Of a DNA stretch of 64,000 nucleotides, positions 6,875 through 39,989 are shown one piece after another; the first letter of the stretch is position 1, and every line of letters starts with the position of its first letter. The position numbers and the translations under genes are program-made. This stretch comes from Desulfobacula sp. (lineage in GTDB: Bacteria; Desulfobacterota; Desulfobacteria; Desulfobacterales; Desulfobacteraceae). The notes below the pieces were generated by a model. The model was not told where the DNA came from. It saw only the letters and a program-made list of their open reading frames with translations, and did not search any database. The DNA lies in NCBI RefSeq assembly GCF_030611305.1, contig NZ_JAUWQB010000007.1, forward strand, positions 76-64,075. The letters are read 5' to 3'.

Positions 6875-8359
6875 TCAGAGTTTTTTAAAATTCATGATAT
6901 GTTTTTTTATTGTTCTTCTATCCAGTCCTGTCATCTTTGCGACCTTCTCGTAGGTACCGGCATCATCGTACAAAAGCTTGCAATATCCTGATACCAGGGA
7001 AGACATAGAGATATCCCGGTCTGAAATTCCTTGTAAAAGTTCCTGTTTCAGGGAGATGGTTTTCTCCTCATCTTTTTGCTTGCCTTTATAGTCCCGTCTT
7101 AACAAAACACTTCTGACACACTGCTCAAGCTCTCGAACATTTCCTGGCCATTGATAATTCTTTCCAAGCCGGCGGTCAATAATTCTTTTAACTTTCAGGA
7201 TTAATTTTTCAGAATGGGTACCGGCCATTTTTTTTATGGTGAAGTCAAGGAGATCATTTAGTTCAGATGGTTTTTCACTGATCCTGGTTCTAAGAGGCGG
7301 AACTTCAATGATATCGGAACACAGCCTGTAATAAAAATCGTCCCTGAATACCTTACCGCTGAGAATATCTTTTTTGGGGCGGTTGGTGGCGGCAATGACC
7401 CTTCCGTTAAATCTTGATTTTTCATGAGTCCCGACAGGGGAAAAGCTTCTTTCCTGGAGAATTCTTAACAGTTTGATCTGCACATGGTTGGGGATTTCAC
7501 CGATTTCATCGAGAAGAATGGAACCATGGGGGCTGCACCGGTCAAACACACCCTGGTAATCATCCACTGCCCCGGTAAAGGCACCTTTTGTATGGCCGAA
7601 CAGTTCGGATTCGAGCAGAGTTTCAGGATATTGGGAGAGATTCAGTGAAGAAAAGGCCCGGGTGAAGCTCTGGGTAAAACATTGTTTTTTTTCATCAAAG
7701 GGAATATATCCGCTTCTGCCGATGGCTTTGGCGGCTGTCCCTTTTCCTGTGCCGGTTTCACCCAGAAGCAGAGTGGAAAAATCCTCCATCTTGTTCCATA
7801 GAAATTTGTTGTACAGATCAAAATTATAAGTGAAAACATTGTACCATAAATGCTTTTTCAGTTTTTTCATGCACGGGCTGCTGCCCACAAGGGAGTTGGA
7901 AATAAAATAAAAGGCCCGTCTGATTTGATAGGAAAGGGCAAAATAATGGGGGATGGTCTTAGCGGAAAATCCCTTTGTGTGGAGCATGTGCCTGGCTTTT
8001 TCGGCAAAGGGAACCTTGACCGGTGTGTCTTCGGCCTTGATTTGATCCTTTATCAGCTGATCAAAATCATCCTTGAATTTGTAAAAGAGATCAAACAGGA
8101 ACACAATCGTAATGATTTCTTTATCCTGGTCGTGAAACGCATTGATATTGGCACGGCCCTGGCTTTCAAGTTTTTTTATCCGGTGATCCACTTCCTTAAT
8201 ACATTGATCAATGCTTTCCCGCCTGGAAGCTGAAGGGAAAATGCCTGCAATTTTAAGATCAAGCTTTTCTCTTAAATCGCTGAACGGATTTGCAAAAGCG
8301 GCATTATAAACCGTTCTGAAAAAGTGACGTTCTTCGGAATTAAGCATTGCTTTTTTCAA
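6875..8359 (-). CDS. sigma-54-dependent transcriptional activator (bEBP) without receiver domain
   Basis: Walker A GETGTGKG, ESELFGHTKGAFTGA (GAFTGA motif) and a C-terminal HTH. The roughly 190-aa N-terminal domain has no motif I recognise. Confidence 0.85.
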   Translation of the reverse strand: MKKAMLNSEERHFFRTVYNAAFANPFSDLREKLDLKIAGIFPSASRRESIDQCIKEVDHRIKKLESQGRANINAFHDQDKEIITIVFLFDLFYKFKDDFDQLIKDQIKAEDTPVKVPFAEKARHMLHTKGFSAKTIPHYFALSYQIRRAFYFISNSLVGSSPCMKKLKKHLWYNVFTYNFDLYNKFLWNKMEDFSTLLLGETGTGKGTAAKAIGRSGYIPFDEKKQCFTQSFTRAFSSLNLSQYPETLLESELFGHTKGAFTGAVDDYQGVFDRCSPHGSILLDEIGEIPNHVQIKLLRILQERSFSPVGTHEKSRFNGRVIAATNRPKKDILSGKVFRDDFYYRLCSDIIEVPPLRTRISEKPSELNDLLDFTIKKMAGTHSEKLILKVKRIIDRRLGKNYQWPGNVRELEQCVRSVLLRRDYKGKQKDEEKTISLKQELLQGISDRDISMSSLVSGYCKLLYDDAGTYEKVAKMTGLDRRTIKKHIMNFKKL

Positions 8360-8514
8360 TTCAAGCCTCCATCAGATGATATTATTCGATAATGTGCAAT
8401 TTTGTACACGTCATATACATAAAATGCAAGAAGAAACATGTCGTTTGATAACCAAAAAAGAAAATTAAATTGAAAAATACTATTATTTCGGTTGGTTATA
8501 TCTTTCAAGGGTTT

Positions 8515-8530
8515 TGGCACAATACTTGAA
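8515..8530 (+). promoter_or_regulatory. sigma-54-like promoter (imperfect -12 element)
   Basis: TGGCAC-aatac-TTGAA has a perfect -24 element, but -12 reads GA instead of GC. It lies 94 nt upstream of the megasynthase ATG and is divergent from the bEBP gene. Confidence 0.45.
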
Positions 8531-19977: not shown

Positions 19978-21762
19978 ATGCCGAAATTAATATCTGAAAA
20001 ACAGATTCTCAAAATCAAATTAGTGAGGAATGTTTTAATCGTATTCCTTTCAATGGCAACGGCACTTTCCATTTATAATATATTTTTTATTTATCCTTCG
20101 CTTACCGAACTGGTCATTGATAACACTAAAAACGATGCGGTACGTGTGGCAAAGCACCTGGCTACAACCTTTATGCCGGAAAGGACTGAACAAAGGCCTT
20201 CCTCTTTTAATGCAGACATGCAGGGTGAAATTAAAAAAATAATTGACGCCTTTGAGCTGAATAAATTACAGGTTTTCTCAAGTACAGGCGAAATTATTTT
20301 TTCTTCAGAACCGGATAATATTGGAAAAGTAAATAAAGAAAAATATTTTCATGAGATCGTAGCCCGGGGAAAAGTTTTTGCAACAGTTGTGAAAAAAGAC
20401 TCCAACTCAATGGAAGGACAGAGATTGACAGCCGATGTGGTGGAGACGTATGTACCTCAAATGCGTGGGAATACTTTTTTGGGCGCATTTGAAATTTATT
20501 ATGACATCACAGATCGGAAGGAAAAATTTGATAACCTCTTATCATTTTCCTCTACGGTCTTATTCATTGTCGTGTTTGGTCTTTTATCTGCAATAGTACT
20601 GGTCTGGCTAAAGGAGAATAAGACCATTAAAGAGCGCAGGCGAGTTGAAAAAGTATTGCTTGAGAGTGAGGAAAAACTGACAGGAATTCTTAATTCGTTT
20701 ACCGATTTTGTCATTCTTGTTGACAGGGACTTGAATATTGTCTGGTCCAACAACACCATGGATGATTTTTTTGGCACAAATTCTTTGGGTAAGAAATACT
20801 ACGATGTTTTTCATTCCCGAAATACACCTTGTACCACATACCATATTGAAAAGTGTTTTCAGGACGGCCGAAGTGTTGAGGATGAGATTGAATGTATAGG
20901 GGCAAATGGCGCCCGAATGGACCTGTGGTACACGGCCTCCGTGACTACCCGCTCTGAGGAGGGTGTTCCAACAACATTGATTGTCGTGTATCGGGATATT
21001 ACCGAGAAAAAGCGGTTGCGGGCAGAAGCTGTCAGGAGTGGTCAACTGGCTTCAATCGGTGAACTTGCGGCCGGTGTTGCACATGAAATCAATAATCCCA
21101 TCAACGGAATTATTAATTGTGCCCAACTGCTTATCGATGAAAGTGAAGAAGGCTGCGAACAGGCCGAGATCTTCCAGCGAATCATCAAGGCCGGCGGCCG
21201 GGTCGCCATGATTGTTCGTAATCTTCTATCCTTTGCCCGGGATACCAAAGATGAGCCGCAGCTGGTCACGCTAAAGAGCCTGCTGTCTGACTGTCTGGAT
21301 TTAACCGAAACGCAGATACGAAAGGAAGGCATAGACCTTAAGGTAGATATTCCGGATAAAATTCCAGAACTCAGGGTGCGAAGTCATCATATTCAGCAAG
21401 TATTTTTAAATATTATCAGCAATGCGAGATATGCTCTCGGCAAAGGTGCCGCTATTGTCCGGAAGAATAAAACAATTGAAATCAAGGGGGAATTGATAGA
21501 TAGTAATACCCATCACTATGTTCGGTTGAATTTTTTTGATAACGGCATTGGTATACCGGCAGATATAATGGATAGAATCTGCGACCCTTTTTTTTCCAGT
21601 AAACCGTCGGGTGAGGGAACAGGTTTAGGATTAAGTATCAGCCATTCTATCATTAAAGATCATGGCGGCAGATTGAATTTTGACAGTGTTGAAGGGGACC
21701 ATACCAATGTAATAATAGACCTGCCGGTTCAAAGTGAGGATGATTTTGAAAAGGAAAAATAG
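19978..21762 (+). CDS. sensor histidine kinase (TM - Cache-like periplasmic domain - TM - PAS - HisKA - HATPase)
   Basis: Two TM segments flank a periplasmic domain of about 150 aa. H-box LAAGVAHEINNPINGI; G-boxes DNGIGIP and GTGLGLSI. Confidence 0.85.
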   Translation: MPKLISEKQILKIKLVRNVLIVFLSMATALSIYNIFFIYPSLTELVIDNTKNDAVRVAKHLATTFMPERTEQRPSSFNADMQGEIKKIIDAFELNKLQVFSSTGEIIFSSEPDNIGKVNKEKYFHEIVARGKVFATVVKKDSNSMEGQRLTADVVETYVPQMRGNTFLGAFEIYYDITDRKEKFDNLLSFSSTVLFIVVFGLLSAIVLVWLKENKTIKERRRVEKVLLESEEKLTGILNSFTDFVILVDRDLNIVWSNNTMDDFFGTNSLGKKYYDVFHSRNTPCTTYHIEKCFQDGRSVEDEIECIGANGARMDLWYTASVTTRSEEGVPTTLIVVYRDITEKKRLRAEAVRSGQLASIGELAAGVAHEINNPINGIINCAQLLIDESEEGCEQAEIFQRIIKAGGRVAMIVRNLLSFARDTKDEPQLVTLKSLLSDCLDLTETQIRKEGIDLKVDIPDKIPELRVRSHHIQQVFLNIISNARYALGKGAAIVRKNKTIEIKGELIDSNTHHYVRLNFFDNGIGIPADIMDRICDPFFSSKPSGEGTGLGLSISHSIIKDHGGRLNFDSVEGDHTNVIIDLPVQSEDDFEKEK

Positions 21763-23473
21763 AATTCTGGTCATTGAGGATGAAGAGATTTTAAGGTTTA
21801 CCTTTAAATCATTCCTTTTGAAAGAAGGGCATGAAGTGATAACTGCCAAAGATTATTCTTCTGCCATAAAGCTCATTTCCGAGCCTGAACCGGACTTGAT
21901 CATCGCCGATATTATCCTGGGAGGTAATACAGGCATCGACATCCTCAGGAAAGTCAAAGAAAAAGGTGTGGAGTGCCCGGTCATCATGATTACCGGACAA
22001 CCCAGCATTGAAACGGCTGCAGAATCCGTCCGTCTGGGTGCCTATGATTACCTGTCCAAACCGGTTGGAAAACAGGACCTGATAAAAATAACAAATCGTG
22101 CCCTTCAATATCATTCAATTATGGCAGAAAAAGACAGAATGGAGGCTGAGAAAGAAAAATACCGTTCTGAGCTGGATACAATTTTTAGGAGTGTTCAAGA
22201 AGGCATCGTCACCGTTGATGAGCAAATGAAAGTGACAAAGGTGAATGACGCATTTGAGCGGATCTGCGGACTGAATGGCAAAAAGATAATTGGCAGACGG
22301 CTGTCTGATGTTTCCGGCCAATGCCGTCAAACATGCTGTCATGTTCTAGAAAAAGTTATACTCACTCAAAAGGGAGTCAAAACCAGTCGGCTTGAATGCC
22401 ACCATCATGACAGGAACAAACAGATCGTTGTCCTGACCGGCTCACCTTTGCGTGACTTGGAAAATAATTTTTCAGGCGCGGCCTTGGTAATCCGGGATGT
22501 AACCAGGGAAAGTGATCTTGAAGGCAGATTAAAGCCCCGTGAAAAATTCATGAATATAATTGGCAGAAGTAAGAAAATGCAGGAATTATATTCCCTTTTG
22601 GAAGATCTGGCCGATTCTGATACAACCATCCTGATCACAGGCGAGAGCGGTACGGGCAAGGAACTGGTTGCTGAAGCGCTCCACTATGGCAGCCACCGGG
22701 CACAAAAGCCCTTTGTTAAAGTTAATTGTTCAGCTCTTGCAGATTCTTTGCTTGAAAGTGAATTGTTCGGCCATATCAAAGGAGCATTTACAGGTGCGGT
22801 AAAAGACCAGCTGGGCCGGTTTGAGATGGCTGACAAAGGAAGTATTCTGCTGGATGAAATCGGTGATATCTCACCCAGATTACAATTAAAGCTGCTCAGA
22901 GTTATACAGGAAAAAGAGTTTGAACGTGTAGGGGAATCAACACCGGTCAAGGTGAATGTGAGGATTATTTCCAGCACAAATCAATTGCTTAAAGAATTGG
23001 TCCGAACGGAAAAGTTCAGAGCAGATCTTTATTATCGCCTCAAGGTAGTGGAAGTAAATCTACCCCCCCTGCGTGAGCGGATCGATGATATAGCATTGCT
23101 GGTCGAACATTTTTGTAAATTGTTTAATAAACGATTCAACAAAGAAATTGGAGACGTCTCCGATGATGTAATTCAGATCTTTTCCGGCTACCCCTGGCCA
23201 GGGAATATCAGAGAACTGGAACATGTACTGGAGCGTGCATTCGTTCTGTGTCATACGGATTTTATTACGGTTGATCATCTTCCTTCGGAAATAAGAACAT
23301 ATCATAAAAAGTTAAATTCTTCTTTTGAAGAGAATTTCGCAGTGGATATCAAGGATATTCTCCAGGCACTTGAAATGACAGGCGGTAATAAAGCCAAGGC
23401 TGCCAGACTACTGGGAATAAACCGCAAAACCATTTACCGCAAGCTGTCCCACCATGATAGTAGCGATCATTAA
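21740..23473 (+). CDS. NtrC-family sigma-54-dependent response regulator (REC-PAS-AAA+-HTH)
   Basis: ILVIEDEE..DLIIADI (REC); GESGTGKE; ESELFGHIKGAFTGA; HTH GGNKAKAARLLGINRKTIYRKL. The start is ambiguous (GTG 21734, ATG 21740 or TTG 21746) and overlaps the kinase stop. Confidence 0.85.
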   Translation: MILKRKNRILVIEDEEILRFTFKSFLLKEGHEVITAKDYSSAIKLISEPEPDLIIADIILGGNTGIDILRKVKEKGVECPVIMITGQPSIETAAESVRLGAYDYLSKPVGKQDLIKITNRALQYHSIMAEKDRMEAEKEKYRSELDTIFRSVQEGIVTVDEQMKVTKVNDAFERICGLNGKKIIGRRLSDVSGQCRQTCCHVLEKVILTQKGVKTSRLECHHHDRNKQIVVLTGSPLRDLENNFSGAALVIRDVTRESDLEGRLKPREKFMNIIGRSKKMQELYSLLEDLADSDTTILITGESGTGKELVAEALHYGSHRAQKPFVKVNCSALADSLLESELFGHIKGAFTGAVKDQLGRFEMADKGSILLDEIGDISPRLQLKLLRVIQEKEFERVGESTPVKVNVRIISSTNQLLKELVRTEKFRADLYYRLKVVEVNLPPLRERIDDIALLVEHFCKLFNKRFNKEIGDVSDDVIQIFSGYPWPGNIRELEHVLERAFVLCHTDFITVDHLPSEIRTYHKKLNSSFEENFAVDIKDILQALEMTGGNKAKAARLLGINRKTIYRKLSHHDSSDH

Positions 23474-23503
23474 AAAAAATCAAAATATAAAGTACAGACC
23501 TGA

Positions 23504-23553
23504 ATGTGGCCTGTCACATTAGCGTGACGTCCCACTAGTGTGACATGCCACAC
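23504..23553. promoter_or_regulatory. pair of dyad-symmetric sites (candidate bEBP upstream activating sequences)
   Basis: ATGTG-gcctgt-CACAT (23504-23519) and GTGTG-acatgc-CACAC (23538-23553), 34 nt centre to centre. They lie about 100-150 nt upstream of the sigma-54 promoter at 23652. Confidence 0.45.
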
Positions 23554-23651
23554 TTCTGCCCAAGTTTTTTTGCCTTTTCTATCCTCTTGTATTCTTTCAT
23601 AACTATTTGAAAAAATAAGAATTATTCTCATGACAAATTTTTAAATCTAAG

Positions 23652-23667
23652 TGGCATGTCTCTTGCT
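23652..23667 (+). promoter_or_regulatory. sigma-54 -24/-12 promoter
   Basis: TGGCAT-gtctc-TTGCT (GG-N10-GC spacing correct), 64 nt upstream of ORF 23731. Confidence 0.7.
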
Positions 23668-23730
23668 AATTAAATTCTATAGCCAAATATTTTATGTACG
23701 TATCGGCGAGTTGATGAACATTAACAGATA

Positions 23731-23961
23731 ATGAAGACCAGCGGGAAAATTATGAAATCTGACGATTCCAGTGTTTCACACCCAGAGAAGAAAAAAAAAT
23801 GTCCTTTTATCGGATCTCCATACAAGGACTGCTATTTTCTCGATATGAGCAGCAACAAGATCGCAATGGCGCTTTTCTATTGCCATAATCATTATACGCA
23901 ATGCGCAATTTATAAAAAGATGAAAACAAAAAAATCTACACAAAAGGATTTGAAGATATGA
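23731..23961 (+). CDS. small Cys-containing protein of unknown function
   Basis: 76-aa ORF with four Cys (CPFIGSPYKDC ... CHNHYTQC). Its stop overlaps the Rieske gene start (ATGA). Confidence 0.4.
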   Translation: MKTSGKIMKSDDSSVSHPEKKKKCPFIGSPYKDCYFLDMSSNKIAMALFYCHNHYTQCAIYKKMKTKKSTQKDLKI

Positions 23962-24413
23962 GCCGAAGAAAATTTTTAAAAACCGCTATTCTCACAGGCT
24001 GCACAGCCTTGGTCACGGGAATTCCGCTGGCTACTTACGTCATCTTACCGTCTTTGAAACAAGAACCTGGTAACTGGATTGATTTTGGATCTGTTGAAGA
24101 TTTGGAACCGGACAATTTTAATATGCTTTCCTATGAGTTCATGGTGAAAGATGGTTGGATAACCCTTCCCCAGAGAGGTTTTGTGTGGGCAAAGGCCGAA
24201 GCAAAACAACAGATTAAAATATTTTCATCAACCTGCTCTCATTTAGCGTGCAACGTGATCTGGCAAAAGGAAACCCGGGAATTTGTATGTCCTTGCCATT
24301 CCGGCCGGTTCGATGCACAAGGACAGCCCATTGCAGGTCCGCCGTCCCGCCCTTTAACTGTTTTGGAACATAAAGTTGCAGACGGCAATTTAATGGTCTT
24401 TATGAAAGTGTAA
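23958..24413 (+). CDS. Rieske [2Fe-2S] protein with Tat signal
   Basis: Twin-arginine signal SRRKFLKTA; cluster boxes CSHLAC and CPCHSGRF. Confidence 0.9.
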   Translation: MSRRKFLKTAILTGCTALVTGIPLATYVILPSLKQEPGNWIDFGSVEDLEPDNFNMLSYEFMVKDGWITLPQRGFVWAKAEAKQQIKIFSSTCSHLACNVIWQKETREFVCPCHSGRFDAQGQPIAGPPSRPLTVLEHKVADGNLMVFMKV

Positions 24414-24445
24414 TATTAACCCGTAATAATAGGAGAACATGAATT

Positions 24446-25432
24446 ATGCGTACTAAATTTGTTATCAGTTTGAGTGTGTGCCTGGCACTTTTTATCGGCA
24501 CACTGCATTTCACTGCCCAGGAAGCCATGGGGGCTTCCAAGCAAGTGCTCATTGCCGCAAAAGTGAAGTCTGCACCGGCAGGATTGGATGATGCCGCCTG
24601 GGGAAAAGCCAGGGGGATCGACGTCCCCTTTGAAGGTAAGGAAGTGTTTGCAGGCCAACATACCAGTGTGGCCACTAAGGCAGTTTATACGAAGGACAAT
24701 ATTTTTTTCCTTTATCAATGGAAAGATGCAAACCAAAGTATCACCAAGGGTGCCTGGCAGTATAAAGATGAAAATTGGATCCACCAAAAAGGTAACGAGG
24801 ATCGGATTTCAATGTTGTTCGAGATTAACCGGATCAACAATTTCGCCACCAAGGGATGTGCAATAGTCTGTCATGTTCCCGACGGTGCAACAAATGCCAA
24901 GGATGGAAAATTTGGTACCCTGACAACTGCTGAAAAAGGTGATTTGTGGCATTGGAAAGCTGCTCGGTCTGATCCGGCAGGCTATGCCGACGATACCTGG
25001 TTGACAAAGATCAGTGAGAAAAAAGGCGGCCGAAAGGGAGATAAAGGAAGCGGCGGTGACAAGAAAAATATAACGGAGGATAAATCCAAACCAAAATATA
25101 TGCTGGCCCAGGGTAAATCTTTGGTCAAAAACGGAATTTTGCTTGCGTCCCACGCCGTGGAGATTACGGATTACTCTGTTTTCAAGGATGGAGATACCAT
25201 TACCTATCGTATGCCTAAAATACCGACAGGCTCTTTTGCTGACATAAAAGCTGATAGCCGTTACGTCAACGGAGAATGGACCGTCATGCTGTCTAGAAAA
25301 CTTGATACCGGAAATCCGGATGATACCGCCTTTAATCCAAAAAGAAAATACAATTTTGCCATGGCGCTTTTTGATAACTCCGGTGATGAAGATTCTTATG
25401 ATTCTGAAGTCATCACCCTTAAATTTAAATAA
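24446..25432 (+). CDS. secreted EB_dh-like (ethylbenzene dehydrogenase gamma / cytochrome c-552-like) heme-binding domain protein, copy 1
   Basis: Signal peptide; GDLWHWKAARSDP and FAMALFDNSGDE blocks typical of this family as I recall it; CAIVCH (CX3CH). Confidence 0.6.
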   Translation: MRTKFVISLSVCLALFIGTLHFTAQEAMGASKQVLIAAKVKSAPAGLDDAAWGKARGIDVPFEGKEVFAGQHTSVATKAVYTKDNIFFLYQWKDANQSITKGAWQYKDENWIHQKGNEDRISMLFEINRINNFATKGCAIVCHVPDGATNAKDGKFGTLTTAEKGDLWHWKAARSDPAGYADDTWLTKISEKKGGRKGDKGSGGDKKNITEDKSKPKYMLAQGKSLVKNGILLASHAVEITDYSVFKDGDTITYRMPKIPTGSFADIKADSRYVNGEWTVMLSRKLDTGNPDDTAFNPKRKYNFAMALFDNSGDEDSYDSEVITLKFK

Positions 25433-25446
25433 TAGATATTTTCAAG

Positions 25447-26538
25447 GTGGAACCGGTGAATAATATACCCATGAAAACCCGATCTTTAAAACTGCTTGAA
25501 TTTTTATCTCTGGAAAAGAGTGCCGACAGGCTGCTCGCCCTTGAGGTCCCGAAGGATGCCCTTTCATGGACCCGTTTTTGTGGTGCCCTGCTCCTTGTGT
25601 TGGTTGTATTGCTGTTTTTGTCGGGAATCTTCATGGCCTTTTATTACTCACCGATTCCTGGAACAGCCTATGACAGTGTAGATTTTGCCCTGTTTAATGT
25701 TCCCTTTGGCAGCGTTGTAAAAGGCGTTCATCATTATTCCTGGAATCTTTTGCTCATGGTCATGGGTGTCCATCTTGGTCGATCCTTGATCCTCGGCAGT
25801 TACAAGGCACCCAGACAGATGGTCTGGGTCACGGGTGTGATAATTTTGCTATTCGTGCCCTTGTTTATCATTACCGGAGATCTTTTGCCTTGGGATCAGA
25901 AGGGATACTGGTCAACCCAGGTTCGTTTAAGTATCATTTCATCAGTCCCGGGTATGGGTCATATTGCCGCTCGACTTCTTCAGGGCGGTTCTCTGACCGG
26001 CGTTGTGGCCTTGACCCGGTTTTATGTACTCCACATCCTGATGCTGCCCGGGCTGCTTGTCTTGCTTATAGCGGTTCATTTTCATTTCATCCGTCATCGT
26101 GGATTATCAGAACCGCTGGGCGCAGACCCGGTCTCCCGGCCCAGGATTCCTTTTTATCCGAATGTGGTGAATCGCTGGCTGTTTTTGTTCATTATGGTTT
26201 CTATCATTCTGGGAGTCATCAGTTGGCATTGGATACCACCTTTTGGTGATCCGGCCGATCCAACAGATTCTTCATATATACCCAAACCAGAGTGGTGGGT
26301 CCTGTTTTTGAATCAGCTCGTATCTGTCTTTAAAGGCGGTTTGGCCGTGTTGGGGTCAACAATAATTCCTGCAGGACTGGCAGGGCTGTTGATATGTTTG
26401 CCATTCATAGATCGTTCCCCCCATCGGCATCCGGCCCGCCGGTGGAAAATTCTTTTGCCTGCCGCCGCGATAGTGATTGCCATCCTCACGCTTTCTATAA
26501 TGGGATACATGGAACACTTTGTCCTGGTTGAGAATTAA
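25447..26538 (+). CDS. cytochrome b (bc1/b6f-type, N- and C-terminal parts fused)
   Basis: Multi-TM protein. His pairs occur in GVHHYSWNLLLMVMGVHLGR and YVLHILMLPGLLVLLIAVHFHF. PEWWVLF sits at the PEWY (Qo) position. Start is GTG 25447 or ATG 25471. Confidence 0.85.
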   Translation: MEPVNNIPMKTRSLKLLEFLSLEKSADRLLALEVPKDALSWTRFCGALLLVLVVLLFLSGIFMAFYYSPIPGTAYDSVDFALFNVPFGSVVKGVHHYSWNLLLMVMGVHLGRSLILGSYKAPRQMVWVTGVIILLFVPLFIITGDLLPWDQKGYWSTQVRLSIISSVPGMGHIAARLLQGGSLTGVVALTRFYVLHILMLPGLLVLLIAVHFHFIRHRGLSEPLGADPVSRPRIPFYPNVVNRWLFLFIMVSIILGVISWHWIPPFGDPADPTDSSYIPKPEWWVLFLNQLVSVFKGGLAVLGSTIIPAGLAGLLICLPFIDRSPHRHPARRWKILLPAAAIVIAILTLSIMGYMEHFVLVEN

Positions 26539-26633
26539 TATGTTCAACGCTTGCCAGGACAAGACCGGATAAGCTCGGAGTAATTCAAGATTTATGAAGT
26601 TGTTAAGATATATAATTTTAATAAAGGTGTATC

Positions 26634-27635
26634 ATGCGTAAAGACAAACAACTATTTACGGTTTTTGCCGTTGTATCGCTTCTATTTTTTATGTGGACCG
26701 GGAAAAGCGTTTGCCTGGCCGCAGACATATTTATCATAAGGGCTGAACACCTTCAGCAGGCCCCGAAAGGATTGAAAGATCCGATTTGGAATCAAATCTC
26801 GTCTATACCTGTTTCCGTTCAGGGAAGAGATGTTCTGTCCGAATCAAAAAGCATCGTATCCACACAGTCAGCTTATACGGATGAATTTATTTATTTTAAA
26901 TTAAAATGGAAGGATCCCACCAGAAGTGTCGTTAAGCAATCCTGGAAATTTGACGGAGTCAACTGGCATCACCAGGAAGGAAATGAAGACCGGATAGCCC
27001 TTCTTTTTGAAACTACCCGGATCAACAAATTTGCAACACGGGGGTGCGCGGTGACATGTCACAGCCCTCCGGATGTCCCTAAAAAAGACTGGAAATTTAC
27101 CACCAGGACCAGTGCTGAAAAAGGCGATTTGTGGCACTGGAAATCTGCCCGGTCCGCCCCTTATCAATATGCAGATGATGCCTGGCTGACCATTGCCGGC
27201 AATCCAACCGGATCATACCGTGAAACCGGCAGGAGAAAAGATGCCGGAAAAGGTGGAGACATTAAAAATCATACTCAGGACGAATCAAAACCGATTTACA
27301 TGCAAGATCCAACTAAAAAGCAGACTGTGCCCGGATTTCTCCTGAAGGAAGAAGCAATAAAAATAAATGACTATTCGATTTTCAAGGCTGGAGATATTAT
27401 TCCTTTCCGGCTGCCTGTAAAACCTGGCGGTTCGCGGTTTGATGTTAAAGCCGAAAGTCAATGGGCAGATGGTCACTGGACGGTCATGCTTTCCAGAAAA
27501 CTGGATACCGGCCATGGGGATGATGTAAGTTTTAATCCCTTGAAAAGGTATAGTTTTGCCATGGCCTTGTTTGATGATTCAGGAGATGATCATTCAAAGG
27601 CAACCAGACCGATGATATTAATCTTCGACCATTAA
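26634..27635 (+). CDS. secreted EB_dh-like heme-binding domain protein, copy 2 (paralog of 24446..25432)
   Basis: Signal peptide; GDLWHWKSARSAP; FAMALFDDSGDD; CAVTCH (CX3CH). Confidence 0.6.
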   Translation: MRKDKQLFTVFAVVSLLFFMWTGKSVCLAADIFIIRAEHLQQAPKGLKDPIWNQISSIPVSVQGRDVLSESKSIVSTQSAYTDEFIYFKLKWKDPTRSVVKQSWKFDGVNWHHQEGNEDRIALLFETTRINKFATRGCAVTCHSPPDVPKKDWKFTTRTSAEKGDLWHWKSARSAPYQYADDAWLTIAGNPTGSYRETGRRKDAGKGGDIKNHTQDESKPIYMQDPTKKQTVPGFLLKEEAIKINDYSIFKAGDIIPFRLPVKPGGSRFDVKAESQWADGHWTVMLSRKLDTGHGDDVSFNPLKRYSFAMALFDDSGDDHSKATRPMILIFDH

Positions 27636-27783: not shown

Positions 27784-28683
27784 GTGGAATCAATTAGTTT
27801 TGAAAACAGGGTTGCTATTGTAACCGGTGCAGGAGAGGGGATCGGAAGAGAATATGCATTGGATTTTGCAAACAGAGGGGCCTGTGTTGTGGTCAATGAT
27901 ATCGGCCATGGGCCGGACCAGTGCCGGACAGCAGACAGGGTTGTGGATGAAATAAAAAGAGCCGGTGGTCAGGCAGTTGCCAGTTTCGATTCCGTGGCTA
28001 CCATGGCAGGCGGTCAGCACATTGTTGACACAGCCATGGATCATTTCGGGAAGGTGGATATCCTGATTAATAATGCCGGGATACTGCGGGACCGGACATT
28101 TATGAAGATGACGGAACAAGAGTGGGATGACGTTATTGCCGTCCATTTGAAAGGCGCTTTTTGTGTGACCCAGCCGGCAGTAAAAATCATGAAAGAGAAC
28201 GGGTACGGCCGAATCGTATTTACTGCCTCATCCTCGGGCATGTATGGAAATTTCGGCCAGGCAAATTACGGGGCTGCCAAAATGGGGGTTATAGGCATTA
28301 TGAACACCCTGAAACTGGAAACAGCCAGGTATAATATTAAAATCAATACAGTGGCTCCCAATGCCGCAACCGGCATGACTCAGGGGGCTTTCCCCGACGA
28401 GGTGGCCAAAAGAATCAAGCCTGCATTTAACACGCCTATGGTGACCTTTCTGTGTTCTGAAGAAAACCGGGAATCCGGGATGCTTTTTACCATGAGTGCC
28501 GGCTGGTTTGCCCGTTCGGCAATGGTTTCCGGCAAAGGCCGTTGCATTGGAGATACAAAAAGACCGATAAGGGCAGAAGAGATCAGGGATCAGTTTGATC
28601 AGATAAAAAGTCTTGAGAATGCTCGCCCCTATGAACATTGCGGTGAGATTTACAGCCTGGGAAGACCTCTGACCGGCAGATAG
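27784..28683 (+). CDS. short-chain dehydrogenase/reductase (3-hydroxyacyl-CoA dehydrogenase-like)
   Basis: VAIVTGAGEGIG, NNAG, SSSG...YGAAK catalytic set; GTG start. Confidence 0.85.
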   Translation: MESISFENRVAIVTGAGEGIGREYALDFANRGACVVVNDIGHGPDQCRTADRVVDEIKRAGGQAVASFDSVATMAGGQHIVDTAMDHFGKVDILINNAGILRDRTFMKMTEQEWDDVIAVHLKGAFCVTQPAVKIMKENGYGRIVFTASSSGMYGNFGQANYGAAKMGVIGIMNTLKLETARYNIKINTVAPNAATGMTQGAFPDEVAKRIKPAFNTPMVTFLCSEENRESGMLFTMSAGWFARSAMVSGKGRCIGDTKRPIRAEEIRDQFDQIKSLENARPYEHCGEIYSLGRPLTGR

Positions 28684-38231: not shown

Positions 38232-39989
38232 TTGAAGACAATTAAAAAAAACTTCACTGCATTGATTGTAATCTTTCTTACAATCAGTGCGTTGTGGTTT
38301 ACCAACCGGGCGGTTACTCTCCAGGATGCATCCTGGGAGGATGTAGTAGCAGAATCAAAGGCCGGTGGGTATAACCTTATAAAAACAGATGAGCTTTGGG
38401 AAAAATACCAGAAAGATCCGGACAACCTTCTCTTTGTTGATACCCGCCAGGAATGGGAATTTCGAACAGGACATATCAAACAGGCCGTCAATTTTCCCAT
38501 GGAGCCAACCTGGCTTTCCCGATGGCAGAAAAAAACTTCTCTTGAAAAGTTTTTAGGGCCGGATAAAGACCGGACCATTGTTTTTTACTGAGCCGGCCTG
38601 GCATGAGTCCGAAGCGACTCGGCAGCCCGTGTGGCTGTAAAACTTGGTTACACAAATATTTATCGTGATCCTCTAGGCTATCCTGAATGGCAGGCAAAAG
38701 GATTTCCTGTAAACAGCACTCCAGCCGGAACAGCTGGTATAGCCCAAATCGGAGAGGTTTCAAACTCTTCCGGAGACAATGCCTATGGTCAACTACACGG
38801 CTGGGCCATGACCTGGACGCTTCTGGGTATTTTTGTCGGTGGTATGGCCCTGAACCTTACTCCATGCGTATATCCCCTCATCCCGGTCACCATATCCTAT
38901 TTTAGCGGCAGGAGCGGTAAAGGACAGACTATTGCCCACGGCTTATGCTATGTGGGCGGAATCGCCTTTACAAATTCATTACTGGGAGTGTTTGCCGCCT
39001 TGACAGGCGGCTTGATGGGAGCAATTCTCCAGCATCCCCTGGTACTGATGATTATCGCAGTTCTTTTAATTTCTCTTTCTTTCAGCCTGTTCGGGTTCTG
39101 GGAATTACGGGTTCCTTATGGGCTTATGCAGGCAGCAACAAAATCACATGCAGGATTTTTAGGCTCTTTATTTATGGGACTCATGATGGGGGTCGTTGCA
39201 GCCCCTTGTATCGGTCCGTTTGTCCTGGGTTTGCTCACCTGGGTAGCCAGCATGGGTAGTCCCTGGCTGGGGTTTATCATTTTCTTTACCTTAAGTTTAG
39301 GATTGGGTCTGCCAATTTTTTTCCTGGCCATATTTTCGGGTAATATCAGTAGGCTTCCCCGGTCGGGTGAATGGATGCTATGGGTCAGAAAACTCATGGG
39401 TTGGGTCTTGATGGGTATGGCTGTCTATTTTATCCAGCCGCTTTTTCCCAAAACCATCGGAATTTTTGTTATGGCAGGGGTGGCTCTTTTGGCAGGGCTT
39501 CACCTGGGCTGGGTCGACAAAACAAAGGCAGCGTTTAAATCCTTTGAATGGATTAAAATGACTGTAGCCATGGCGGCATTCGTATTCATGACCATTCTTG
39601 TGGGAAGCTTTATCACCCAGGGGCCTGGAGTAAGTTTTAATTCCTATGATAAAAATCTGCTGGTACAGGCAAAAAATGAGGGAAAACTTGTGATTATAGA
39701 TTTTTTCGCAGAATGGTGCAGCCCCTGTCGGGAACTTGATGATATTACTTTTCATGACGACAGAGTGGTGGAGCCGATAGCAAAGGATTTTATTCTGATC
39801 AAGGTGGACCTGACCCTCAAAGGTAATCCAATCCATGAGAAACTACTAAATGAATATCATATTAAAGGGGTTCCAACTATTGTGTTCCTGGACAGGAAAG
39901 GCCAGGAAATCAAAGAACTTCGTCTGGTAGATTTTGAACCCCCGGAACTATTTCTGGAAAGGTTAAACAAGGCAAAACAGATACAATAA
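38232..39989 (+). CDS. selenoprotein: membrane-anchored rhodanese (U-x4-U) fused to a DsbD/CcdA-type transmembrane domain and a C-terminal thioredoxin; in-frame UGA at 38589-38591 and 38604-38606
   Basis: ORFs 38232..38591 and 38631..39989 are in the same frame. The read-through gives TIVFY-U-AGLA-U-VRSDSAARVAVKLGYTNIYRDPLGYPEWQAKGFPV, completing one rhodanese fold. Downstream come TPCVYPLIP and AAPCIGPF (DsbD beta-type Cys) and FFAEWCSPC (Trx). Confidence 0.75.
38604..38621 (+). promoter_or_regulatory. candidate SECIS-type hairpin
   Basis: UGAGUC-CGAAGC-GACUCG: a 6-bp stem (one G-U pair) with a hexaloop, starting 12 nt after the first UGA and including the second UGA. Confidence 0.35.

Follow-up and report, generated by a model that had tools for sequence, protein, structure and literature searches.

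A 64-kb stretch of DNA from Desulfobacula sp., an uncultured sulfate reducer (contig NZ_JAUWQB010000007.1), hereafter the window, encodes a compact gene module in which a Rieske protein and a cytochrome b are interleaved with two secreted proteins of the EB_dh family (PF09459), designated here EB1 and EB2. The evidence favours, with moderate confidence, a regulated menaquinol:EB-cytochrome oxidoreductase in which EB1 and EB2 stand in place of cytochrome c1 or f. All coordinates are window positions, and gene families were assigned by Pfam and NCBIfam profile searches of the window proteins. The core comprises a Rieske [2Fe-2S] protein predicted to be exported by the twin-arginine translocation (Tat) system (23958-24413, + strand), EB1, which has an EB_dh/CBM9 fold (24446-25432, +), an unsplit cytochrome b (25447-26538, +) and EB2, a secreted paralogue of EB1 with the same fold (26634-27635, +). 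It is preceded by a gene for a small basic protein of 76 amino acids with four cysteines (4-Cys protein; 23731-23961, +) and, further upstream, by genes for a sensor histidine kinase (19978-21762, +) and an NtrC-type sigma-54 response regulator (21734-23473, +). These seven genes had been proposed in an earlier note on this DNA, and the list of open reading frames and the profile searches agree with it on coordinates and domains alike. The note had also taken the two EB_dh-like proteins for the third redox partner of the Rieske/cytochrome b pair, a proposal that gains support from synteny in about 60 species, from the cytochrome b tree and from a second gene layout, with a split cytochrome b6, that ends in an EB_dh gene.

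In respiration and photosynthesis alike, energy-conserving quinol oxidation centres on Rieske/cytochrome b complexes, whose haem subunit has been reinvented several times, as cytochrome c1, as cytochrome f, and as dihaem and tetrahaem cytochromes c. In the mechanism envisaged for the present module, a kinase sensing the periplasm would phosphorylate the NtrC-type activator, which would bind two upstream dyads and fire a sigma-54 promoter placed before five tightly packed genes. The Tat-inserted and probably low-potential Rieske protein, together with a seven-helix, b6-like cytochrome b, would oxidise menaquinol at the quinol oxidation (Qo) site, marked by the motif PEWW, and a Q cycle would return one electron through the two b haems to the quinone pool and deliver the other to the Rieske cluster. 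EB1 and EB2, most likely carrying one covalent haem each through a CX3CH motif, would replace c1 or f; the axial ligands would be the CX3CH histidine and the residue at the position of the axial lysine of EbdC and NxrC, which is a lysine in EB2 and a tyrosine in EB1, and the electrons would be passed on to a periplasmic acceptor that is not encoded at the locus.

The membrane core carries the features of the bc class, namely the ligands of the Rieske cluster, the disulfide cysteines, an N-terminal anchor on the Rieske protein and two histidine pairs in the cytochrome b. The Rieske protein matches the Pfam Rieske model (1.9e-9) and the NCBIfam PetC and Rieske_proteo models, shows one N-terminal hydrophobic segment in a scan for transmembrane (TM) helices, and scores 17.5 bits on the TAT signal model against a cut-off of 16.7 bits, in line with the Tat export claimed earlier. 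Its two boxes, CSHLAC and CPCHSGRF, include the disulfide cysteines and are both conserved in 64 sequences. In the bovine iron-sulfur protein, Ser163 and Tyr165 form hydrogen bonds to the Rieske cluster; box II of the present proteins reads CPCH-[S/T]-G-x-F in most orthologues and, because Gly and Phe replace those two bovine residues, the comparison suggests a low-potential cluster suited to menaquinol.

The cytochrome b, which is the sole bc-type Cytochrome_B protein of the genome, is unsplit, with seven predicted TM helices, a Pfam Cytochrome_B match at 3e-37 and a weak C-terminal domain match. Its histidine pairs, H95/H109 and H196/H211, have the b6-type spacing, which is kept in 59 of 60 orthologues, and among sequences in the PDB it matches b6 at 3.5e-39, with the b6 and bc1 cytochrome b matches ranging from 1e-39 to 1e-29. 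The full-length cytochrome b with PEWW at the PEWY position described in the earlier note was borne out: the motif lies at residue 281, retains Pro, Glu and Trp with a change from Tyr to Trp, and is present in all 60 sequences compared. This variant is absent from the main text of a survey of Qo motifs (PMC4122944), and unsplit cytochromes b with seven helices are already known for delta-proteobacteria (PMC3509893). A haem ci site was considered and rejected, the cysteine near helix A being one residue off the register of b6 Cys35 and not conserved. The cytochrome b reading frame begins at a GTG that lacks a clear Shine-Dalgarno sequence (25447-25473), and translation may in fact start from an ATG located eight codons further on. 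No protein of the module contains CXXCH or matches a Pfam model for c1 or f, and no c1, f, dihaem or tetrahaem cytochrome c is encoded with the pair at the locus or recurs across the 60 neighbourhoods of the module described below. The haem c subunit of the Rieske/cytochrome b class varies between lineages, and for this reason its absence does not exclude the module from the wider class.

Both flanking proteins belong to the family to which they had been assigned, and the prospect that they might prove to have unrelated folds was not borne out. Pfam EB_dh is matched at 1e-52 by EB1 and at 2.4e-53 by EB2 (180 and 182 bits, respectively, with a cut-off of 33.3 bits), whereas the NCBIfam gamma-subunit models give 35-40 bits against a cut-off of 170 bits. 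An AlphaFold (AF2) model of EB1 built with 97 homologues has a predicted local distance difference test score (pLDDT) of 90.9, and its top Foldseek matches in the PDB are NXR-C of Kuenenia (NxrC, 7b04_C; E=5.5e-10) and EbdC (2ivf_C; E=1e-10), followed by CBM9 modules; the template modelling (TM) score against EbdC, normalised to EbdC, is 0.70. Sequence profile similarity to NXR-C and EbdC is low (E=4.5e-10 and 0.0025). In the EB1 and EB2 orthologues the only hydrophobic segment is that of a signal peptide with an AXA-type cleavage site; because this peptide is cleavable, the EB proteins are probably soluble in the periplasm and not membrane-anchored subunits. Their earlier description as secreted proteins is upheld. 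It could be argued that the EB_dh-like genes are unrelated neighbours of the redox genes, encoding for instance secreted carbohydrate-binding proteins similar to CBM9, since the fold is common to CBM9 carbohydrate-binding modules and the EB proteins are soluble and secreted; this is extremely improbable and already disfavoured, however, because, across two architectures and about 60 species, the EB genes are interleaved on one strand, and at short distances, with those of the Rieske protein and cytochrome b, and because CX3CH is conserved and relatives are fused to multihaem cytochromes.

EB1 and EB2 are 46% identical and share a CX3CH motif, C138-AIV-C142-H143 in EB1 and CAVTCH in EB2, which is at least 90% conserved in 97 EB sequences and contains the only two cysteines of each mature protein. 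EB2 has in addition a conserved C-terminal His-Ser-Lys, and EB1 the paralogue-specific Tyr318; when about 48 EB1 sequences are set against about 48 EB2 sequences, fixed differences are limited to three alignment positions (K65R, Y318K and S320T). Lys322 of EB2 falls within 1-2 residues of the axial lysines of NXR-C (K305) and EbdC (K201) by ungapped HMMER extension. No methionine is conserved across the 97 sequences, and the register of Met155 of NxrC is occupied by a conserved threonine. CX3CH is a known but uncommon haem-attachment spacing (among the CX3CH/CX4CH variants), and ResB and CcsA, of the System II type of cytochrome c maturation, are encoded on contig C156, so that a CXnCH-type motif in an exported protein and a maturation system are found in the same genome. 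A DsbD/CcdA-type protein (DsbD_TM 2e-39, with a thioredoxin domain) is encoded 11 kb downstream of the module (38631-39989, +); thiol-reductant transporters of this type serve cytochrome c maturation.

On these grounds EB1 and EB2 are more likely c-type cytochromes with haem covalently bound through CX3CH than classical haem b proteins, and the family would then have undergone, in these members, a switch from Met/Lys haem b to covalent haem. The description of the pair as EB_dh-like haem proteins is thus retained as to the family and revised as to the classical haem b type, the Met ligand being missing and CX3CH conserved. A different outcome, namely that EB1 and EB2 bind haem b non-covalently as EbdC and NxrC do, with the two cysteines forming a structural disulfide, would leave the Rieske/cytochrome b unit as such in place. 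All solved EB_dh proteins use haem b with Met and Lys as ligands (PMC8387239, PMC8840923), EB2 retains a lysine near the ligand position and the haloarchaeal 'soluble cytochrome b' offers a precedent; yet a methionine is conserved nowhere in the 97 sequences, the ligand-like position of EB1 is a tyrosine and not a lysine, and a disulfide needs no histidine, whereas one follows the second cysteine in at least 90% of the sequences and in 141 of 150 distant representatives. Non-covalent haem b is accordingly unlikely.

The motif extends well beyond the module. A deep HMMER scan of 1.8 billion representative proteins returned 2144 relatives (clusters at 50% identity), 273 of them at 1e-30; of the best 150 representatives of the 2144 clusters, those 141 contain CX3CH and most of the exceptions are fragments. 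In the same 150, the motif occurs once per EB_dh domain in tandem proteins, about 20-30 residues before a W[HYF]WK motif, and several family members are fused to CXXCH multihaem regions. Among the long relatives (P0125, P0132, P0137 and P0267) are proteins with three to six tandem EB_dh domains, with one CX3CH each, and a protein of 966 amino acids joins eight CXXCH motifs to one EB_dh domain; such tandem and multihaem-fused proteins could be extended electron-transfer proteins. A broader proposal, to which we would give somewhat less than an even chance, is that EB_dh-fold proteins with one CX3CH per domain make up an extensive, so far unrecognised group of c-type cytochromes built on a beta-sandwich and that, in Desulfobacterota, they provide a third, independently evolved solution to the Rieske acceptor after c1 and f, with His/Lys ligation in EB2 (convergent with the His/amine ligation of cytochrome f), His/Tyr ligation in EB1 and, hence, two very different haem potentials.

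The distribution of the module was followed in a synteny scan of one genome per prokaryotic species, which gave 74 loci, nearly all in metagenome-assembled genomes (MAGs) of Desulfobacterales or Syntrophobacterales, and all window proteins were mapped onto these loci. The conserved core consists of the four genes for Rieske, EB1, cytochrome b and EB2, syntenic in about 60 species-level genomes of Desulfobacterota, in the order Rieske-EB1-cytochrome b-EB2 in 35 loci and Rieske-EB1-EB2-cytochrome b in 13; carriers include the Olavius Delta1 symbiont and MAGs related to Desulfatibacillum. The five-gene synteny that the earlier note wished to see surveyed therefore holds for the four-gene core, and the 4-Cys gene and the sigma-54 pair turned out to be clade-specific. 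Gene order requires two changes on the cytochrome b tree, a value equalled in 0 of 500 label shuffles, and because gene orders cluster on this tree the module evolves as a unit. A second layout, found in a MAG labelled Myxococcota (locus L074) and in locus L066, comprises a Rieske protein, a cytochrome b6 of the split type, a protein resembling subunit IV that has the canonical PEWY, and one EB_dh protein (CAVLCH). On the tree of EB sequences the EB2 proteins group together with 99% support, the EB1 proteins make up a separate clade, and the lone EB proteins that go with split cytochrome b branch outside the two; therefore, the duplication is old and both copies have been retained.

The module is rare: in an even sample of 401 genomes across the phylum, only 4, the source genome among them, have the family at E<=1e-30, and no genome sampled from its own order does. 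When the neighbours of the module were searched for a terminal enzyme, the recurrent ones proved to be two-component systems; FeoB, extracytoplasmic function (ECF) sigma/anti-sigma and DtxR-type genes occur sporadically, in 3-5 loci each. Two further loci have an EB_dh gene in a different setting. In one (L095, 6740-10026, genome G214) a lone EB1-like gene with CX3CH is convergent to ResB-CcsA genes, with no Rieske or cytochrome b gene nearby. In the other (L093, 4328-10148, genome G353) the gene for a distant EB_dh protein of 384 amino acids with CX3CH precedes, all on one strand, those for a membrane protein of 240 amino acids with one CXXCH, a laccase-like protein (Cu-oxidase_4) and a regulator/kinase pair of the OmpR type, which gives the EB family another two-component-controlled context.

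The earlier note had stressed that neither a c1/f partner nor a molybdoenzyme, the usual companion of EB_dh subunits, is encoded, and this was confirmed at the locus, in profile searches of the genome and in the 60 neighbourhoods. The genome (3.57 Mb, 159 contigs, 97% complete) encodes dsrA, cytochrome bd and the usual multihaem cytochromes, and no EB_dh gene beyond EB1 and EB2. These data bear on the possibility that EB1 and EB2 are gamma subunits of an enzyme of the type II dimethyl sulfoxide (DMSO) reductase family encoded elsewhere, which the Rieske/cytochrome b pair would feed or drain. EB_dh subunits usually accompany type II enzymes and, in haloarchaeal clusters, a Rieske/cytochrome b pair is joined with a soluble cytochrome b and NarGH, but no type II alpha subunit passes the cut-off in the genome (best match, 97 bits against 985), none lies on the contig of the window, and neither a molybdoenzyme nor a cytochrome c or an oxidase recurs among the neighbours of the 60 loci. 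An enzyme of this kind is thus a very unlikely partner. Two octahaem cytochromes are possible electron sinks in the periplasm, with no genetic link to the module: one of the Otr family with a C-terminal hydrophobic tail (contig C144, 43535-45178), and one similar to Hao/HDH, encoded near a tetrahaem NrfH/NapC-like protein (contig C3, 9502-13710).

Regulation of the module appears to involve both the two-component pair and sigma-54. The kinase has two TM helices that bracket a periplasmic sensor domain of about 155 residues, followed by PAS, HisKA and HATPase_c domains. The sensor domain had been called a Cache domain, which Pfam does not support (best Cache family, Cache_WalK, E=0.19) and which finds backing at the level of the fold: in a model of moderate confidence (pLDDT 69) the best structural match is the extracellular sCache/PDC domain of WalK (TM score 0.6-0.7), followed by the sensor domains of CitA, KinD and TlpA. 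The regulator, whose gene overlaps that of the kinase by 29 nt, has a REC-PAS-AAA+-HTH_8 architecture with strong Pfam scores (Sigma54_activat, 5e-68; Response_reg, 9e-25; HTH_8, 8e-12) and contains GAFTGA. Its PAS domain carries a Cys-rich CRQTCCH segment (residues 197-203; 22322-22342), which might bind metal or haem and so make the regulator redox-sensitive.

Between the regulator and the first gene of the module lies a -24/-12 element, TGGCATgtctcTTGCT (23652-23667, +), located by pattern search 64 nt 5' of the first gene and with one mismatch to TGGCAC-N5-TTGCW. Matches of this quality are as common in the window as expected by chance (41 found, 36.5 expected) and the pattern alone therefore proves nothing. 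However, in aligned regulator-to-first-gene spacers the element is kept in position across the five closest relatives (L001-L005), the GG-N10-GC spacing is kept in L074, and rpoN is encoded in the genome, so that the sigma-54 promoter described earlier as a textbook example stands, with one mismatch, through its conservation. Two RTGTG-N6-CACAY dyads were read from the sequence upstream of the promoter (23504-23519 and 23538-23553; span 23504-23553, no strand assigned). GTGAC..GTCAC-type palindromes occupy the aligned place in L001-L005 and in L074, an A/T-rich tract upstream is conserved as well, and the dyads are probably upstream activating sequences for the regulator. The locus thus appears to combine the elements of a sigma-54 two-component regulon, that is, an activator with REC, AAA+ (GAFTGA) and HTH domains, a -24/-12 promoter, upstream dyads and rpoN. 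The gaps across the five module genes measure -4, 32, 14 and 95 nt, with no convincing terminator inside the run and no clear terminator 3' of EB2. A short-chain dehydrogenase/reductase (SDR) gene at 27784-28683 was weighed as a possible further gene of the operon and left out, since relatives do not conserve it beside the module.

The sigma-54 system does not accompany the module everywhere. The kinase/regulator pair is conserved upstream only in L002-L005 and L074, and homologues of the 4-Cys protein were found only in L001, L002, L004, L005 and L074. The latter protein, which is basic, lacks a signal peptide and has four conserved cysteines, matches no Pfam or NCBIfam family and has no paralogue in the genome; its stop codon overlaps the Rieske start (ATGA) and, judging from this distribution, it is an accessory of the sigma-54-regulated variant. 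In L074 (1722-8286) the same sigma-54 pair, 4-Cys gene and promoter spacing precede the split-b6 module and, since they are found there before a different layout, the regulatory genes and the 4-Cys gene move as a set between types of module. In 25 of the 60 loci the genes directly upstream of the module encode instead a regulator of the OmpR/CopR family and a HAMP kinase; outside the clade the OmpR-type pair resembles the CopRS/HprRS/RppAB-type family, with all matches below the equivalog cut-offs.

Such a regulatory setting could also indicate that the module works in reverse, or has a sensory or protective role, with EB1 and EB2 taking electrons from a periplasmic donor or reacting with O2, H2O2 or a metal, and with Rieske/cytochrome b coupling this to menaquinone as a stress response instead of an energy-conserving branch of respiration. 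In agreement with such a role, the module is always under two-component control, including the CopRS/HprRS/RppAB-like pair outside the clade, it is rare and patchy in the manner of accessory stress modules, the genome has no classical terminal enzyme, and a distant lone EB gene stands beside Cu-oxidase_4 and an OmpR pair. Nevertheless, the Glu of PEWY is retained in the Qo motif, which sets the module apart from the APWY clade for which reverse operation has been discussed, the sequences point to no substrate, and the regulators are similar only at the level of the family; a reversed or protective module is decidedly unlikely.

Several observations weigh against a menaquinol:EB-cytochrome oxidoreductase and temper the confidence placed in it. 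Genome G088 has Rieske-EB1-cytochrome b without EB2 and its sister genome G214 has EB1 alone; the link between the EB family and Rieske/cytochrome b is therefore not a strict one, and in this genus the module seems to have been partly lost. Searches of the source genome gave no plausible terminal enzyme of high potential: at 97% completeness, it contains no haem-copper oxidase (COX1), cytochrome c peroxidase (CCP) or NrfA. EB proteins that lack an anchor do not imply a stable complex of three or four subunits. As to the haem, the evidence for covalent attachment is the CX3CH motif itself, the register of the EB2 lysine was obtained by ungapped extension, with an offset of 1-2 residues, and in family members of solved structure the haem b is bound non-covalently (PMC8387239, PMC8840923).

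Elsewhere in the window, the gene at 6875-8359 (-) specifies another sigma-54 activator, one that has no receiver domain, and is divergent from a gene for a 3712-aa protein resembling polyunsaturated fatty acid (PUFA) synthases; two near-consensus -24/-12 matches (at 8149 and 8515; region 8149-8530) lie just upstream of the latter gene.

The nearest documented arrangement is the haloarchaeal Rieske-cytochrome b-Nar cluster, which encodes the Rieske protein NarB, the cytochrome b NarC, a 'soluble cytochrome b' and NarGH, and in which the b-type cytochrome has been proposed to act as the electron carrier between the Rieske protein and NarH (PMC3509893). Both systems have Rieske/cytochrome b without c1 or f and, in the same cluster, a periplasmic haem protein of EB_dh type as the proposed Rieske acceptor. 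In the haloarchaeal cluster, however, one haem b protein serves the adjacent NarGH, whereas the present module has two paralogues, CX3CH in place of Met and bacterial two-component control, and a molybdoenzyme is found neither at the locus nor in the genome. EbdC and NXR-C, in which Met and Lys ligate haem b (PMC8387239, PMC8840923), share with the EB proteins PF09459, the beta-sandwich fold, a W-[HY]-W-K-A motif and a C-terminal segment, with the EB2 lysine near the axial lysine. They differ in having about 15% identity to the EB proteins and Met/Lys haem b instead of CX3CH without Met; moreover, they are bound to a molybdenum/Fe-S enzyme, whereas the EB proteins are encoded with Rieske/cytochrome b and are about 110 residues longer than EbdC.

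With the bc1 and b6f complexes the module shares the Rieske cluster boxes and disulfide cysteines, the four histidine ligands of cytochrome b, the Pro, Glu and Trp of the PEWY-type Qo motif and an expected Q cycle; its candidate acceptors also recall cytochrome f in being beta-rich haem proteins in which one axial ligand may be an amine (Lys). It departs from both complexes in the absence of a c1 or f homologue and of CXXCH, in its anchorless acceptors, in PEWW, and in an unsplit seven-helix cytochrome b with b6-type histidine spacing. The perchlorate island of Azospira contains an EbdC-like 'haem b/c' protein beside a quinol dehydrogenase of NapC type (PMC3884062), and thus a stand-alone putative periplasmic relay of the EB_dh family next to a quinol dehydrogenase, likewise under sigma-54 two-component control; the partner there is a NapC-type tetrahaem protein, and the island also encodes perchlorate reductase. 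In the literature searched, including searches for PF09459, no description of a Rieske, cytochrome b and EB_dh module was found, and an EB_dh or DOMON partner goes unmentioned in the searchable surveys of cytochrome bc operon contexts. Homologues are annotated publicly only as 'ethylbenzene dehydrogenase-related' or 'hypothetical'.

If the proposed function holds true, EB_dh-fold proteins with CX3CH would add a new type of Rieske acceptor and would link bc complexes to the gamma subunits of periplasmic molybdoenzymes, and the module would open to experiment a family that comprises more than 2000 clusters. It also raises the question of which role a strictly regulated, higher-potential quinol-oxidising branch plays in sulfate reducers that have no haem-copper oxidase, NrfA or CCP; the answer could reveal an unrecognised electron acceptor or a defence against oxidants in sediment bacteria.

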